From positions 1 to 56,855 of the forward strand of contig CALSSJ010000029.1 of the NCBI GenBank assembly GCA_943788985.1: a stretch of DNA of 56,855 nucleotides. Reading direction: 5' to 3'. Source of the stretch: an uncultured Lentisphaerales bacterium (GTDB taxonomy: Bacteria; Verrucomicrobiota; Lentisphaeria; JABSQK01; UBA12247). The notes below the pieces were generated by a model, which saw only the letters and a list, made by a program, of their open reading frames with translations, did not search any database and was not told the origin of the DNA. Below are positions 44,159 to 51,332 of this stretch, piece after piece. The position numbers and the translations under genes are program-made. Position 1 is the stretch's first letter. Each line of letters starts with the position of its first letter.

Positions 44159-44278
44159 CTACCAGAACTCCCCGATGAGTGCCCCCGAAACCGTATATGA
44201 ATATCCCACAGCCGGAGGCAGCCGAAGCCAACGAATTTCCAATTGAGGAATGAAAAGCATCGAGTACGCATTCCAGGT

Positions 44279-44317
44279 CTTGGACATTGGAAATTCCATG
44301 TTGGCTGTTGGACATTC
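44279..44317. repeat. 7-nt-period TTGGACA-type repeat (solo arm)
   Basis: CTTGGACATTGGAAATTCCATGTTGGCTGTTGGACATTC. Confidence 0.5.
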
Positions 44318-44398
44318 AAAAATTCTTTGCAACTCGCCCGTCAGTCCGCGAGTTCCTAGCCCTTTTGGGCCCTTTGTCGCCAGCCAACTCTGGAAGAT

Positions 44399-44975
44399 CT
44401 AGTCGACCGCTTCACGAGAGCTGCCGACCCGAATGCCTCGTTTGAGCGGCGCCTTGCGAGTCGGGCTGTAGTCTACATGGCAGAACAAAAAGGCGGGAAA
44501 GGAACTGTCCAACTCGTGTTTATGAGTCTGCCAGGTGATGAGCGTGCGGACGCTGTTGGCGCCGCGAGACTCCTCGACGTAGACGTGGCGTTCCAGCACT
44601 TCACTGCGGGCGATGTCTCGGCTCCGGGACTCGGTCTCAAGATTCTCCAGCTCCACATTTGGCTGCAACTGCGTAAATAGCGCGTGGTTCCCGTCGCCTT
44701 CTTTATACAATGAGGGAATGGCTCCGAAGTCGAATTCCCCTTTCTTGCCGAATCCCATGGCAAGACGCATGTTCGTCCAATTCAGTAGATTATCGCTCTC
44801 GGCGACAAACGACTGATATCCTTTGCCGTCATAACCGATAAAGGCCATGTACCATTTGTCGTCACCCGACATCTGAAAGATCGTAGGAACATCTGTCGAT
44901 CGAACATCCTCAAAGCCCTCAATGTTCGGTTTCGCGAGAATCACATGGTCGGGATAGTAATGCCCCCCGGAAAGG
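44399..44975 (-). pseudogene. Chimeric remnant: beta-propeller glycosidase fragment joined to an unrelated C-terminal fragment
   Basis: HYYPDHV...DVPTIFQ...WYMAFIGYDGKGYQSFVAESDNLLNW...GEFDFG, then an abrupt switch to ...SEVLERHVY...DYSPTRKAPLKRGIRV. Confidence 0.6.
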
Positions 44976-44990
44976 AGCGGATTACTTCTT

Positions 44991-46532
44991 CTAGTTCATC
45001 TGGAGGTTGACGTCGGAGTGATAATCGCTGCGCCAGGGCGGCTCGTTGCTCTGATTCCAGAGGCCCTGCAGGTTGGCCGGCAGACTGCCGGGGCGCGAGC
45101 AGGAGATCATCAGATAACGAGCGTAGTTGAAGATCAGCGTTTCGAGTTCGGGGTCATGGGCTCCGCCACGATATGCACCAAGCCTTTCCGCGGCGTCCAG
45201 CGCGCGGGCGCTCGCCGGGTTTTGACCGAGCTGCAGGGATAGCCTGTTGAAGAGGCTATGATAGTCGGCGATATGCTCTTGGAGGAGGTCTTGATAGCTA
45301 CAAGCGGAGGCATTGGCGAGCCGCTGACTGATCGCCTGATGCGGGTGCTCCTGCGTCCAACCCTTGTCGTGTCGATTGAGGTAGTTGGTGTCGCCACTGA
45401 GCATTAGCACCAGAGAGTCGCAATCCTCGAAGGTGATTGTGTTATTGGTCGCCTGTATGCGTCCACCCTGGTTGAGGACAATGACCTGTGCCTCGTAGTC
45501 GAGGCGGATGGCGTAGTTCTCCTTTGGTTTGCGGTATTTCCCCGAGAGCGTACCGGAGAAGGAGAGCGTGTTGCCCTCGGCCTTGGTGATGCCATCGTGC
45601 GCGCCCTTCAGTGAGATGGCACCGCTGTAGCAACCGGCTTTGTCTGCTGACAACCGGAGCACGATGACGTCCGCAGGATTGCTGGCAAAATACTCACGTG
45701 TGAAGGTGACTCCGCGGAGATCGTAGCAGGTCGTGTGCACGGCGCGACCGATATCGAGCTCCCGGCGATACGCTTCTGCTGTCGCAGGCTTGATGGCATA
45801 GGTCGCATCCAGCGAAACGCCGTTGAGCGCAATCTCGGAGAGCTGGTAGAGCGGGTCGCCATTATTGGCCAGCAGCGTCAGCCGGTAGAAGCGGTAAGCC
45901 GTGCTGTTCTCAAAGGTGAAGGCCTTCTCGTGTTTCCGTTTCGGAAACGGGTCCTGCTCCGTGCGCTGATCCAGCAGCACCCAAGTCGTGCCATCGTGTG
46001 ACCCTTCCCAGTGCCAGTCCTTGGGATCACGCGCGGGAACGTCGTTAGCAGATGCCAACATGTACTGGTTCACCACGACCGGTTGATCCAGCTTTACCTG
46101 CCATTGAAGCGGGCGGCCTCCATGCGGCACGCACCACTTCGTGTTCACATCACCGTCAACCGACATGTCGATCTGCTCGGGACGTTCGCTCGAGGCCATT
46201 TGCCCCGAGCTACACCGCAGCCATTTCGGCCCTGGATCGGTCTCTTTCAGCGTTATGTAGAGATCGCCAAAGGCCTGATAGGCCCCGGTATCGGTTTCAT
46301 CCCCGATCCATAGGCTGTCCTCATTGAACTGGATGCGCTCGTTGGACACGCCGCCGAAGATCATTGCGCCCAGGTGCCCATTGCCGATGGGCAAGCATTC
46401 CTGCTGCCAGTCCGTTGCCGGGCGGTCCGACCAAATCGTTTGGTCCATTGCGGACTTCGCACAAGCGGCCATTGCGGAGATCGCAATGCTCAGCGCAGTA
46501 AGCAGGCGGGGAAGGAAGAGGGTGTTTTTCAT
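44991..46532 (-). pseudogene. GH95 alpha-L-fucosidase-like gene with F5/8 (CBM32-like) insertion, 3'-truncated
   Basis: LPIGNGHLGAM, IQFNEDSLW, GAYQAFGD, SANDVPARDPKDW, RYLMISCSRPG, PANLQGLWN, SDYHSDVNLQMN then TAG where YW is expected. Confidence 0.85.
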
Positions 46533-46549
46533 GATTTGGTTCCCGGTGT

Positions 46550-46624
46550 AATTCGGACTGATGGACTTGGGGACTTGAGGGACTCGCGTCTTTGGACTCT
46601 GGGATACGCGAGTCCGCCAGTCCT
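46550..46624. repeat. Arm of a long imperfect inverted repeat flanking the four-helix-bundle gene
   Basis: GGACT units at 8-9 nt spacing; complementary to 47409-47482; inner 18 nt match 17/18. Confidence 0.85.
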
Positions 46625-46626
46625 CT

Positions 46627-47372
46627 TCATTTCCCAATGTTCACAATTCCTCGGCAATCCGGGAACCCGGTGCAGCCCGAGAATGGTTTGCCGGCGTTCT
46701 GGCCGGATTTAGCGGTGCAGCGGCGCATCGGCTTGCCGCAGTCCGGACAGCTCGGCGCATTCGGGTCGGCGTTTTGTCGGTCCCGCTCATCAAGCCGGGC
46801 GCTGTTCATGCGTTCGCGGAACCCACCTTTCTGCAGGAACTCCTCTTCCTGTGCGGCAAGCTGCTTCTTGAGCATACCGCTCGTGCGCTGCAACAGCACG
46901 ATCATGGCGTTGGCGATCACGTCGGCAGTCGTCCGATTCGAGCCAGCGCTTGAACTTCTCCTGCTGCGAGAAGAGGTACTCCGCTGGCCTTGTGCAAATC
47001 GTCACCGGGCTGCAGCGGGTTCGCGTCGAGCAGGACCCTTTTGAGTTCTAGGAACTCAGGAGAGTTGGTGCTCCAAGGGAGCTTCTTCTGGTTCGACAGC
47101 CAGAACTCATAGTCGCCCTGAAGTTCCCCCAAGCTGGCACGGGCCACGTCGGTGAGCTGCATCTCGGTGGTATTGGAGGTGCCGGCACGCTCCGACCCTT
47201 CGACGATGTTGGCTCTGCCGGAGCGAGCTGCCTGCGTCATCTGGTCGAACTGACGTCCGCAAGGATCGTTCCGCCTGTTCAGGAACTGGCTGCAGAAACG
47301 CCAGGTGGCAAGCTGAATACTCGAGGCGTAGGTGAAGGTATTCAGCTTTCGGTAGCCGCCGCTCTTCTTCAT
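46627..47372 (-). CDS. Four-helix-bundle (23S rRNA IVP-like) protein with suffix domain and topoisomerase-type C4 zinc ribbon; 2 frameshifts
   Basis: GGYRKL, DQMTQAARSGRANIVEG, LTDVARASLGELQGDYE, ANAMIVLL...FLQKGGFRERM, CPDCGKPM...GCTGFPDCRG. Confidence 0.88.
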
Positions 47373-47408
47373 GTCGAATCTCCTTTGTTCTTGGACTCAA
47401 GGTCTGAC

Positions 47409-47482
47409 AGGACTAGCGGACTCGCGAGTTCCCACGTCCAAGGCGTGAGTCCCAAAAGTCCCGCGAGTCCGTTCGTCCAATT
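47409..47482. repeat. Second arm of the inverted repeat flanking the four-helix-bundle gene
   Basis: AGGACTAGCGGACTCGCG...AGTCCC AAAAGTCCC GCGAGTCC GTTCGTCCAATT. Confidence 0.85.
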
Positions 47483-47539
47483 TCTATCTCTAAATGGATC
47501 CCGATCCACACTCCCTCCTTCCTGGCCACAGGCCCCTTC

Positions 47540-48886
47540 TCATCCGTTCAGCGTCCAGCCGGCTCGGTAGGGCTTGGTCAGGTACTGATTGGCATCAGCA
47601 ACGTTGGTGACCCGACCGGCCACGCCGTCGTACTCCAAGTCTGCTCCGGCGCGGAAGCTTGCGTGCCCCAGATTCAGGGTCTCGATCATGCTGGCGGCGT
47701 ACTCGAAGTTGCAGGCAGTCTCCCAAGGCCGACCGCTCTTGCAGGCCGTGGTCCATTGATGCTGGAAGTGGCCCAGGTTCGCAGCGACGTCCTCCCGGCT
47801 CCGCGGCCGGAAGTAGCTCAGGTCAGCGCTCTTGCCATAGGGAATCAGGAGCCGCCGCTTAAAGTCAGCGATTACGTAGCCTTGGTCACCTTTGAACAGC
47901 GCGCCGTGGGCAATCGTATCGAGATCGATCCAGTCCAGAGGCGACTTGGGCCCGGTCTTGCCTTGAAGCCAGGTCACGCGAATTTGGTCGCGCCAGTCGT
48001 TGGCGGGCATCATGAAGGAAGCGCGAAACTCGGCGGGCGTCGTGTCTGGATTGGGCGTTTCGCTGGATGCGGTCTGCACCGATGTCGGGCACTGGGCGTC
48101 GATCACATTCCAGACCAGGTCGAAGGTGTGGCTTCCCCAGTCTCCGGCATAACCCATGCTGAAGTCCCAGTACTTGTTCCAGCTCTGGCAGCCGAGCCCA
48201 GCCCGGTCGCCGAGCGCGAAGTATCCGGGATTGTACGGATGCTCTGGCGACGGCCCGAGCCACAGGTCATAGTTCAGGTGTGCCGGAGGCGCCCCGGCCG
48301 CTGGCAGGTAGCCCGGTCGCGAGCTGGCGCGCCGGCCCCAGGCGTATGCTTCCTTGAGTTTGCCAATGGCGCCGTCCTGGATCATCTCGCGCAGACGGTC
48401 GAAGTTTGGATCCGCATGCCGCTGGGTTCCGACCTGCGTGGCGAGCTTGTCCTTCTTCTTTAGGTATGTCTCACGCAAGGTACGCGCTTCATTCACCGTG
48501 ATCGCGATTGGTTTCTCCACGTAGACATGAAGGTCGCGGTTCATGGCCCAATTGGCCACAAAGGCATGCGTGTGGTCGGTGGTACAGCAGAGCACTGCGT
48601 CGAGTCCGGGATGATCCAGCGCCTTGCGCCAATCCTCATACGGGGTGGCATCCGGATACTCAGCCATGCCCTTGGCCAGGTTCTTCTTGTGGACATCGCA
48701 AACGACAACCACGTTCTCGCCCTTGAGGGCGCCATAGTGCTGGCTGGCACGGCCCCAGGCCCCGATCAACGCAATGTTGAGCCGATTGCTCGGCCGGTTC
48801 TGCCCAAAGACCGTGCCACTGGGAAGGATGAGCAGCCCGGCAGCACCGGCTTTGAGAAACGAACGGCGATTCAGTTTGGTTTCCAT
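47540..48886 (-). CDS. Tat-exported Gfo/Idh/MocA oxidoreductase
   Basis: NRRSFLK Tat motif, [39 protein letters not shown]. Confidence 0.93.
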
Positions 48887-48932: not shown

Positions 48933-51332
48933 TTATTTCGTGACCTGCAGCTCACCATTGAGTCTGAATACATCGCCTGCAGTGCAGTCCAGCGAACGGG
49001 TTTCAGCGCCATAGTTCACTCTGATATGGTCGTCGGCACCAGCGTGCAGAACGGCAGAGGTCAGGCGCCCATCGCTCCAGGAGATGTCGATGACATGCCC
49101 GCCACGGACCAACACTCCTGTGATCGATCCCTCCGCGAATTCCTCGGGCCAGGCCGGCAGCAGGTCGATGTGCCCCGGGCGTGAGAAGACGAGCATTTCC
49201 ATGAGCAACCGCGGCAGGCTCAGGGAGGCATCCAGATTGTAGATTCTGTCCGGATCATGAGACGTGACCAAGCTGGCATAGTGATAGTTTCGACGCGCAA
49301 ATAGATCCAGATTCTTCGTGACCTTGTCGACCTGCTTGAGGCGGGCTGCCATCAAGGCCACATGGATCAGGCCGTGTGCGCTATTGGTTTGATGGGCGAA
49401 CCGCTTGTCTAGCGCAACACCAGCGGCCTGAAGCAAGGCAGGGGGACTCTCAGGTTCCAACAGTTCCATCCCGGGATAGATCGGGTAAAGGTGGGAGCTA
49501 TGACGGTGATTGTAGTTGTCCCCGTACTGTTCAGGAATCCACTCCGCCAGCGCGCCATCTTGATTGATTCGGTAGGTAACCAAGTTGTCGCGAATCTGCG
49601 TCCAGCGTGCGATCTTCTCTGGGGCGAGGTCGAAGCGTTCCCCCAGTTCGATCAGGATCTGAAACACCTCACGGGCCACGGCCACATCAAAGGTGGTATC
49701 CTTCAACACCAGCTCATGTTTCATATCAGGCGGCCAGTTCTCCGGCGAGAGGCCCGGATTGATGTGGTAGACGCCCTGCTCATCCTTGGTCAGGTAATCC
49801 TCGTAAAAGTCCCCCATCTCCAAGTACAGCGGCAACACTCGGTTCTCCATGAACGCCCAGTCGCCATTCAACAACGCATAATCGTAGAACGGACGGATGT
49901 TCCAGCCCCCGCCGCCGATCCAATACATCCAGGCCCAGAAGCCCGCAATGTGCGTGAGATGGCCCTTTTCAGGGTCCGCGTAATGCGGCACCAAAAAGCC
50001 GCGACAGCCCAGGTAGCTCTTGGCATTCAGGCGCCAGCCGGGCAGGATGCGTTCGACATAGCCAAAGTATGACTCGGCACATTCGGGCAGATTCCCCATC
50101 GCTGCGGCAGAGATCGCCAGGTTCAGGTTTGAGTCCAGGACAAAACCACCAGACCACGCCGGTTTCCAGTCCCCACCCCAGATGCCTTGGAGCGGCGCGG
50201 GGTAGCGCCCAGAGGTCGAGATCAGCAGGTAGCGTCCCATGGCATGGGTCTGTTCCAGGAACAACGGGCTGACGCCTCCGGATGCCGAATCCTTCCGGAA
50301 CTGTTCGGTGGACGTCGTCGCCCATTGCTCCTTGCAGCCTAGATCCAAGATCACACGCCGGAACATGTCGCCGTGTGATTTGGCATGCGGCTCCAGCAGC
50401 GCCTCATACGCCTCGGGCAATGCAGCCAACTCTTGTTCGATCTCGCTGCGAGCGGAAGTTGAGCCGTCATCCAGCGGGTGAATCCGGAGCGTAATCAGCA
50501 CTTCGTCGGCATCGGAAACCTGAAGGCCCTCTCGGGCCTGAACCAGCGATCCTCCCTTTGTGGTGACTCGGGCCACGCCCTCATAGCCACCGCGGTCCAG
50601 CGCATAGTCTGCATGGAAATGCAGGCCGTGGTTCGCCGTCGCTTCGCTCTTCACCGAGCGAAACACCTTGGCCAGATCGAGTCCCTGGTAGTCTCCGGTT
50701 CGCCCAGGCGTTTCTGCCAGCCAGAGCGAGAGGGCCAGCTTGCGCTCTCCCGTCGCCCGCAGCGCCACCACCGTCACATTGCTGTCTCTGGAGGAGAATA
50801 CCCGCTGTTCCGTCCCGCCTCCCTCATGCTGCCAGCGGGAGATTGCCTCGCCGGTTTCGAGGTTCAACGTCCGCTCGTAGGCGGCGGTTTCCCCGGTGCC
50901 ATGGTGTGCGATTCGCAGGTCGAAAGCGGGATGCGGGGTGACCGCATTCGCATGCCCGGTTCCATTTTCGCGCAGCAACCTGCTGGCTTCATGGCTTGCC
51001 GGCACCGGAGCCTTTGGCTCCCCGGCGTCAATCCTCCGGCGGACCTCTGGCACGAGGTGGGCGATATCCACGACCGCTTCAAGGTCGCGGTCCCATTTGC
51101 GGATAAACAGCTCCTCATGGACACAGATAATCTGCTCGTTCTCGGGCTGTCCCATGACCATGGTGCCTTGCCTGCCGTTTCCGGTGACGAATGCGTCTTC
51201 CCATTTCTCAGCAGCTTGCTCAGAACGAATGGTCCAGCGTCCGTCTGGTTCCCCTTGCCGCGAAAATGCCGAGATCGTTGCGGCCATTGCGATACCTGTG
51301 ATGAGTGTTGTTAGCTTGTGCCTGGTGGTCAT
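48933..51332 (-). CDS. GH95-like glycoside hydrolase, secreted
   Basis: WEDAFVTGNG, GRYLLIS, LQGIWG, SPEN, LAEW, HRHSSHLYP, EMLVFS, LLPAWP, GVLVRGG. Confidence 0.88.
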   Translation of the reverse strand: MTTRHKLTTLITGIAMAATISAFSRQGEPDGRWTIRSEQAAEKWEDAFVTGNGRQGTMVMGQPENEQIICVHEELFIRKWDRDLEAVVDIAHLVPEVRRRIDAGEPKAPVPASHEASRLLRENGTGHANAVTPHPAFDLRIAHHGTGETAAYERTLNLETGEAISRWQHEGGGTEQRVFSSRDSNVTVVALRATGERKLALSLWLAETPGRTGDYQGLDLAKVFRSVKSEATANHGLHFHADYALDRGGYEGVARVTTKGGSLVQAREGLQVSDADEVLITLRIHPLDDGSTSARSEIEQELAALPEAYEALLEPHAKSHGDMFRRVILDLGCKEQWATTSTEQFRKDSASGGVSPLFLEQTHAMGRYLLISTSGRYPAPLQGIWGGDWKPAWSGGFVLDSNLNLAISAAAMGNLPECAESYFGYVERILPGWRLNAKSYLGCRGFLVPHYADPEKGHLTHIAGFWAWMYWIGGGGWNIRPFYDYALLNGDWAFMENRVLPLYLEMGDFYEDYLTKDEQGVYHINPGLSPENWPPDMKHELVLKDTTFDVAVAREVFQILIELGERFDLAPEKIARWTQIRDNLVTYRINQDGALAEWIPEQYGDNYNHRHSSHLYPIYPGMELLEPESPPALLQAAGVALDKRFAHQTNSAHGLIHVALMAARLKQVDKVTKNLDLFARRNYHYASLVTSHDPDRIYNLDASLSLPRLLMEMLVFSRPGHIDLLPAWPEEFAEGSITGVLVRGGHVIDISWSDGRLTSAVLHAGADDHIRVNYGAETRSLDCTAGDVFRLNGELQVTK

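Follow-up and report, generated by a model that had tools for sequence, protein, structure and literature searches.

A four-helix-bundle gene enclosed by a word-array inverted repeat in a Lentisphaerales operon, and a candidate partnership between protein and repeat

Why does a gene for a small four-helix-bundle protein stand inside a long inverted repeat, in the middle of a sugar-degradation operon? The question is raised by contig CALSSJ010000029.1 of an uncultured Lentisphaerales bacterium (assembly GCA_943788985.1), whose positions 1 to 56,855 form the stretch of 56,855 nucleotides (nt) analysed here, which we call the window. An initial annotation of this DNA likened the cassette at 46550-47482 to the intervening sequences (IVSs) of 23S rRNA genes; 23S rRNA IVSs bearing an open reading frame (ORF) were reportedly described by Ralph and McClelland in 1993. 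We found that the inverted repeat is real, that its layout is a trait of the gene family, that the gene is under purifying selection and that paralogues in the same genome are centred in palindromic arrays that also occur as gene-less copies. On balance, and without great confidence, we favour a model in which the cassette is a resident, IVS-like or REPIN/RAYT-like element bracketed by a hairpin, held together by a partnership between the protein and its array. The cassette is made up of the following parts.

46550-46624: arm 3' of the gene, identical in strain contig L043
46627-47372, minus strand: four-helix-bundle gene (S23p/Avd-like, with a TIGR04258 suffix and a probable Top1-type C4 zinc ribbon)
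47380-47385, minus strand: Shine-Dalgarno-like AAGGAG, 7 nt before the start codon
47409-47482: arm 5' of the gene in the coding sense, identical in strain contigs L043 and L038

The two arms align as reverse complements from end to end, with a Smith-Waterman score of 60. Dinucleotide shuffles (n = 1000) scored 16.0 (standard deviation 2.4, maximum 28), and shuffles that kept the GGAC and GTCC words (n = 1000) scored 27.5 (standard deviation 5.4, maximum 49); none of the latter reached 60, and the direct-orientation control on the same flanks gave 20. The claim of a ~74-bp inverted repeat of GGACT units therefore holds along its whole length, as does its complementarity against shuffled low-complexity sequence. 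On the plus strand, the 46550-46624 arm opens with AATT (46550-46553) and continues with five GGAC words (starting at 46555, 46563, 46571, 46580 and 46594) and two GTCC words (46612 and 46620). The 47409-47482 arm has two GGAC words (47410 and 47418) and five GTCC words (47436-47475) and closes with AATT (47479-47482). Each arm thus carries five outer words, spaced by 8-14 nt, and two inner words of the opposite sense, and the arms are mirror images. AATT was correctly placed at both outer ends, although, being palindromic, it cannot separate a target duplication from the end of an inverted repeat. The word GGACT is not enriched genome-wide (3690 seen, 4934 expected).

The arms also pair when read as coding-strand RNA. 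Over 71 aligned positions there are 61 Watson-Crick pairs, 1 G-U, 5 A-C and 4 other mismatches, plus small gaps. The inner 18 nt are 94.4% paired on the plus strand, and their single mismatch, C-A on that strand, is G-U on the coding strand, so that the full pairing of this segment in the RNA stands as first described. When the 971-nt coding-strand RNA is folded for minimum energy (z = -5.5, 20 shuffles), the arms join along their whole length and AAGGAG stays unpaired in the loop of the long stem; hairpins local to each arm are weakly better than shuffles (z = -2.2 and -2.1). The limits of the repeat relative to the gene are as annotated: the stop codon ends at 46627 and the neighbouring arm at 46624, with 2 nt between them, and the other arm ends at 47409, ahead of the ribosome-binding site (24 nt from AAGGAG and 36 nt from the ATG at 47372).

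The gene between the arms is split in the window assembly and whole in a closely related strain. In the window it falls into an ORF of 151 amino acids (46917-47372) and one of 97 amino acids (46627-46920), and the middle piece is read in the remaining frame. The split comes from two single surplus bases, near 46984 and 46928, relative to the metagenome contigs L043 and L038 (98-99% identical). L043, which is without the extra bases, encodes a single 247-amino-acid protein, P0003, which we take as the intact allele. In contigs from two DNA runs, the base at 46928 is absent at all depth and the base at 46981 or 46984 is absent in part. Because the extra bases are missing from L043, L038 and the DNA-run contigs, the break is either strain-specific or an assembly error. 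The differences among alleles are mostly synonymous (ratio of nonsynonymous to synonymous rates, dN/dS, 0.18-0.23; proportion of synonymous differences, pS, 0.05-0.09), indicating that the protein is under purifying selection. Together, the intact alleles and a dN/dS of ~0.2 imply that the gene is functional in the population.

Strain variation is concentrated in this ORF. Between the window and L043 there are 19 mismatches over 3592 nt, 14 of them inside the 746-nt ORF, and in the 1300 nt around the cassette that could be aligned column by column L043 has no differences outside the ORF. L038 has 40 mismatches over 2993 nt, and 15 of the 16 differences in its aligned stretch fall inside the ORF. 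The arms show no differences between strains, and the DNA-run contigs also break inside the cassette ORF. The variation in the loop must therefore be much older, or faster-evolving, than its surroundings. As a side observation, a 39-nt in-frame skip at 46741-46779, in the region of the linker and zinc ribbon, appears in runs X16 (RNA library), X1 and X2 (DNA), although its shorter side spans just 26-28 nt, which makes the evidence weak.

The protein is assigned to the S23p/four-helix-bundle family, in the long form that carries a suffix helix and a zinc ribbon. TIGR04258 (cut-off 40 bits) scores 66 bits on the C-terminal ORF of the window, 66.1 on P0003, and 59.8 and 64.6 on P0001 and P0002, two paralogues from the same genome. 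TIGR02436 barely passes its cut-off of 24 bits (26 and 24.7 bits), and PF05635 stays below its cut-off of 33.8 bits (24.5 and 23.2 bits). The Top1-type C4 zinc ribbon PF01396 (cut-off 32) reaches 24.3 bits in P0003 and 36.4 and 40.8 bits in the paralogues; its CPxC...C...C pattern is kept in 11 of 12 aligned sequences, the entire domain being absent from L034. A predicted structure of P0003 (mean predicted local distance difference test score, pLDDT, 82) had 2gsc (Xcc0516) and 2rld (BT_0352) as its top Foldseek matches in the PDB, with probabilities of 0.99-1.0, template-modelling (TM) scores to target of 0.57-0.75 and E-values of 0.03-0.12; the modelled fold is thus a four-helix bundle like those of Xcc0516 and BT_0352. 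A sequence search of the PDB returned nothing below E = 0.67, and PADLOC found no match to a defence system. In NCBIfam and Pfam only the four-helix-bundle, suffix and zinc-ribbon matches appeared, with no recombinase, nuclease, transposase or HUH/Y1 domain. Avd, the accessory protein of diversity-generating retroelements (DGRs), is pentameric, belongs to the same four-helix-bundle superfamily and has a nucleic-acid-related role.

The layout seen in the window recurs among homologues. These occur in 33 of the 61 genomes of the class, often several to a genome and often with internal stops, and a scan of species-representative genomes returned more than 600 matching stretches from many phyla. 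The locus scan used a narrower alignment (A2), as a second one (A1) was too diverse. We surveyed 95 non-redundant loci with 250-nt flanks, setting an inverted-repeat threshold of a score of at least 30 and leaving out three duplicate records (L157, L124 and L119); at 11 of 109 loci the flanks were short, N occurred or the match was incomplete. The main control was drawn from one genome only, which is a weakness of the comparison given here.

Homologous loci: flanking inverted repeat at 19/95, short-period flank array at 32/95
Control ORFs of this genome: flanking inverted repeat at 0/400 (maximum score 28), short-period flank array at 7/400
Windows shifted within the same loci: flanking inverted repeat at 2/81

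The hairpin-plus-gene layout is a feature of the family. The expectation that family genes are enclosed by inverted repeats is thus borne out relative to the controls, although the majority of loci fall below the threshold. The word period is mostly 9 (20 arrays) or 8 (10 arrays), with a median of 4 copies. Words vary by locus, even inside one genome, and have no set orientation with respect to the gene. Dispersal differs among the arm arrays of five other cassettes, with many copies in genomes G055, G054 and G037, one nearby in G043 and none in G003. Several arrays of the source genome and of G055 lie at contig ends. Two candidate rules for the words failed. A universal GAC/GTC core, present in 19 of 38 arrays, was not clearly above chance and was dropped, and the idea that the host genome sets the words was rejected, given that cassettes within each of G037, G043, G035 and G012 differ in theirs. 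An extreme case of inverted word arrays is locus L203 (G035:C1:5293146-5294742), where the 9-mer CCAGTGGAC is repeated six times on the downstream side of the gene and then gives way to GTCCACACT, tandemly repeated more than 20 times.

The source genome holds three gene-plus-repeat-family pairs and one solitary cassette, that of the window. Two of the pairs involve the intact paralogues, P0001 in locus L006 (G000:C38) and P0002 in locus L005 (G000:C10), which share 77% identity with one another and 47% and 44% with P0003. Their genes are embedded in tandem arrays whose palindromic units, 171 nt long at L006 and 179 nt at L005, each consist of two inverted blocks of 7-8-nt words (TTGACTC/CAAGAGT; GACTYGGT/GTCAT...) and a ~50-nt spacer with a small hairpin. 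At L006 the ORF segment (1341-2141) occupies the exact palindrome centre of one unit, between ~26-nt direct copies of that centre. At L005 the ORF stands in place of the inner portion of a unit, with no duplication, and a perfect 15-nt outer inverted repeat is kept. Eight loci carry the L006 unit, 7 of them without a gene, and 16 carry the L005 unit, about 15 without a gene; all gene-less units that were inspected are intergenic. At C39:3879-5218, for example, 6.6 units of 203 nt fill a 1.45-kb intergenic gap with no gene. Gene-less tandem palindromic arrays of the paralogue-unit families were also seen at G000:C7:73742-74267 (a contig end) and G000:C2:107522-107621. A separate array family of period 10 (TCGACTnnAG, 3.7-4.5 copies) was noted at G000:C14:38205, C17:133562, C22:205823 and C39:19431.

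The third pair is a short-form gene (G000:C15:83588-83905; L001, 1353-1999) with one internal TAA, flanked on either side by a copy of a third hairpin repeat, which is scattered over about 15 genomic loci. One copy of this repeat, mainly a single arm, lies in the window at 44195-44330 (near 44270-44320), and many contigs of runs X1, X2 and X17 have loose ends between 44208 and 44319, as a repeat would produce. Elsewhere in the genome, at G000:C31:42897-46048, about 2.3 kb separate a gene for a reverse transcriptase (PF00078, 135.7 bits) from arrays of TGACTGGG (4.6 copies) and a zinc-ribbon fragment that belongs to the family, an arrangement which may represent a retroelement context for one family member. 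Measured against REPIN/RAYT systems, cognate palindromic repeats are inverted around the gene in both the window and the paralogues, and dispersed repeats exist for the paralogue units but not for the window arms. The proposal that the protein recognises its own repeats thus gains indirect support, in that the three other four-helix-bundle genes of this genome each sit in a dispersed repeat family of their own; binding itself is something we infer.

The cassette lies between co-oriented Gfo/Idh/MocA and GH95 genes, both on the minus strand, as had been annotated. The neighbouring genes are these.

48933-51332, minus strand: GH95 gene, upstream of the Gfo/Idh/MocA gene
47540-48886, minus strand: Gfo/Idh/MocA oxidoreductase gene, glycoside 3-dehydrogenase-like; upstream neighbour
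44991-46535, minus strand: second GH95-type gene with an F5/8 type C insert; downstream neighbour

The 46550-46624 arm lies 14 nt from 46535, the start of the downstream GH95-type gene. That gene is truncated, retaining only positions 1-101 of the 408 of the catalytic domain; the same 514 residues are present in L043, and the truncation is therefore not an assembly artefact of the window alone. An unrelated 181-amino-acid ORF (44399-44944) follows it. The cassette does not interrupt a 23S rRNA helix, and Rfam gave no RNA family of meaningful score at the locus, only weak microRNA-like or small-RNA-hairpin-like matches far below gathering scores. No terminator-like site was found on the coding strand, and the non-coding strand had 2, against 1.5 expected from shuffles.

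Our favoured reading of these observations is a resident element bracketed by a hairpin. The cassette would have no promoter of its own, and its transcripts would come from read-through of the sugar-degradation operon. The protein, probably oligomeric like the pentameric S23p and Avd, would bind the tandem words of its own arms, and the zinc ribbon might help on single-stranded or hairpin nucleic acid. Such a partnership between protein and array could keep the element alive, much as a RAYT gene is kept with its REPINs, and in the paralogues it may also have multiplied the arrays. In the mRNA the arms would zip into a stem of ~70 bp, a plausible substrate of RNase III as in rRNA intervening sequences.

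Two known systems come closest to the cassette. The first is the 23S rRNA IVS of Coxiella burnetii (helix 45) and Leptospira. As described in passages of PMC4990558, RNase III cuts the 28-bp terminal stem of the Coxiella IVS, which also has a decaying S23p ORF preceded by two or three GACAGAT heptamers, and S23p is pentameric. The window cassette is similar in having an S23p-family ORF in the loop of an inverted-repeat stem, short tandem words beside the ORF, no recombinase, a probable ride on a host transcript and an ORF that decays in some strains. It differs in lying between protein-coding genes rather than in rRNA, in having arms of ~75 nt composed of 8-9-nt word arrays rather than the 28-bp stem given there (PMC4990558), and in the extra suffix helix and zinc ribbon of its protein. 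The initial comparison to an IVS stands for the anatomy and family membership of the cassette; mobility or excision of this copy is not supported, given a single copy and no clean empty site. The second system is REPIN/RAYT, as portrayed in parts of PMC3116915 and PMC3337134, which shares with our cassettes a single-copy gene flanked by its own inverted palindromic repeats and, in the paralogues, gene-less repeats dispersed in intergenic DNA with one family per gene. By contrast, the protein here is a four-helix bundle with a zinc ribbon, whereas RAYT is an HUH tyrosine transposase. Tandem words of 7-10 nt make up the repeats here, which often form tandem units of 171-203 nt, and the window arms are not dispersed.

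Several observations weigh against this reading. The four-helix-bundle gene carries a frameshift in the window assembly. The window arms consist of related GGACT words that occur at their own locus only, with no other copy in the genome. About one fifth to one third of long-form homologues pass the flanking-repeat thresholds, and with only this minority passing the arrays are not a fixed requirement. No catalytic domain is recognisable in the protein, and any copying of the arrays would therefore need host enzymes. A promoter scan of both strands found no sigma-70-like site, although the scan considered the sigma-70 consensus only. RNA-library contigs from one study cross both arms (45842-46740, 47288-47639 and 47049-47557), which is compatible with read-through transcription, but these are assembled Logan contigs in which DNA may be included and transcript ends are not visible; for the same runs, low or absent cover (X17, 46510-47011; X16, 46761-47262) is not readable as processing. 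Arm mismatches show no excess of G-U over A-C on the sense strand, either in the window (1 versus 5) or across 19 cassettes (38 G-U, 53 A-C and 102 other mismatches, with 818 Watson-Crick pairs). Finally, binding, processing and movement are all steps that we infer.

The most serious competing explanation, which we nevertheless consider unlikely, is that the arms are purely a cis-acting RNA stem, cut by RNase III or serving as an insulator or stabiliser, that releases or isolates the four-helix-bundle mRNA exactly as in rRNA IVS excision, with the protein unrelated to the repeats. Such a stem would account for the end-to-end pairing of the minimum-energy fold (z = -5.5), for arms that stop 2 nt past the stop codon and do not cover the start codon or the ribosome-binding site, and for the co-oriented genes on either side and the RNA-library contigs that cross both arms; a precedent is the RNase III cleavage of the Coxiella IVS stem reported in passages of PMC4990558. 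However, selection for a sense-RNA stem would predict more G-U than A-C mismatches, and the lack of wobble bias on the sense strand thus gives no sign of such selection. Judged from these sequence counts, the mismatches seem to fit a feature read as DNA or on either strand, and a sense-RNA stem gains no support from them. The suggestion that the mRNA loops out the ORF fares unevenly, with full-length pairing of the arms in the fold on one side and no sense-strand G-U bias on the other. Moreover, a stem does not need periodic words of 8-9 nt, similar arrays without a gene are scattered through intergenic DNA, the orientation of words relative to the gene varies, and the neighbours are co-oriented at only 61 of 89 homologous loci upstream and 44 of 84 downstream.

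Less probable again is a model in which the arrays are independent repeats of the repetitive extragenic palindromic (REP) or bacterial interspersed mosaic element (BIME) type, while the gene, a small mobile unit in its own right, homes into the centres of palindromes, the arms being its target and no part of the element. The L006 ORF segment, interrupting a unit at its palindrome centre with a flanking direct duplication of ~26 nt, speaks for this model, and gene-less units do outnumber gene-bearing ones. Yet the L005 ORF replaces the inner part of its unit with no duplication, and no conserved ends are visible among the ORF segments. In addition, the window arms have no gene-less copy anywhere in the genome, and arrays, rare beside control ORFs (7 of 400), flank homologues in many phyla with a word that differs at each locus.

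We regard as quite improbable the initial proposal of a transposase-free mobile or excisable 0.93-kb cassette, active today and moving or looping out as DNA, with AATT as its target duplication. The terminal inverted repeats with AATT at both outer ends would suit such an element, but the palindromic AATT is perhaps merely the end of the repeat. The cassette has a single copy in the genome and no recombinase or nuclease domain, and it does not qualify as an insertion sequence or a miniature inverted-repeat transposable element (MITE), having one copy, an uninformative AATT and no transposase domain. Both near-identical strains carry it at the same place, with identical arms. Among 40 GTDB relatives there was no Gfo orthologue at E <= 1e-60, and the source genome is the sole member of its family among the genomes searched. 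Three metagenome relatives (L039, L041 and L042; Gfo 76-81% identical) have no cassette after the Gfo gene, which might seem to favour mobility; however, other genes follow there, and with the gene order different these are not empty sites. Similarly, one contig of run X1 leaves the window sequence right after the Gfo stop, but its breakpoint at 47538 is 56 nt outside the repeat. Contigs of four runs contained no joint that skips the cassette. Thus, the predicted empty site with a single AATT did not materialise in clean form in GTDB relatives, metagenome relatives or sequencing runs, and the window copy looks solitary and immobile.

Finally, although arms built from a repeated 5-mer might hint that the inverted repeat arose by chance from low-complexity GGACT-rich sequence, the word-preserving shuffles (0/1000), the direct-orientation score (20 versus 60) and the recurrence of the same architecture among homologues leave this explanation with almost no credibility.

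Returning to the partnership of protein and array, two further systems invite comparison. Unlike in a DGR, the window contig (C29) has no match to the reverse-transcriptase domain RVT_1 (PF00078); the genome has two, on C31 and C21, and the DGR comparison rests on this domain, template and variable repeats not having been searched for. Eukaryotic Foldback (FB) transposons have long inverted terminal repeats composed of short tandem sub-repeats, with loops that are coding in some cases and not in many others. They are far larger and encode unrelated proteins, so the analogy is one of form only. In the literature searched, we found no description of this cassette class outside rRNA, and the gene-plus-repeat package is apparently widespread and undescribed.

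These results bear on a protein family that is very large and, according to passages of PMC4990558, has been of unknown function since rRNA IVSs were discovered in the early 1990s. Parts of PMC3936711 place 18 family genes within cas loci, one such position lying between cmr3 and cmr2. The recurring package, a gene in the loop of a hairpin whose arrays are specific to that gene, provides a concrete candidate ligand for S23p-family proteins, namely their own arms. It also links rRNA IVSs with the 7-10-nt tandem repeats of many bacterial genomes and with REP-like palindromes in phyla that have no RAYT to explain them. For annotation, cassettes within operons may cut or insulate polycistronic mRNAs, and the arrays break assemblies.

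More tentatively, and as a possibility that we hold to be less than likely, proteins of the S23p/Avd superfamily may act in trans as partners of a large class of bacterial repeat elements not described so far. Its members would be hairpins with arms of 7-10-nt word arrays, comprising a gene-bearing master copy and gene-less copies that spread in intergenic DNA, with each protein matched to its own word family. If this is true, the classical 23S rRNA IVS would be one special landing site of the class, and bacteria would harbour a REPIN/RAYT-like replicator run by a non-enzymatic nucleic-acid-binding protein that borrows the enzymes of its host.

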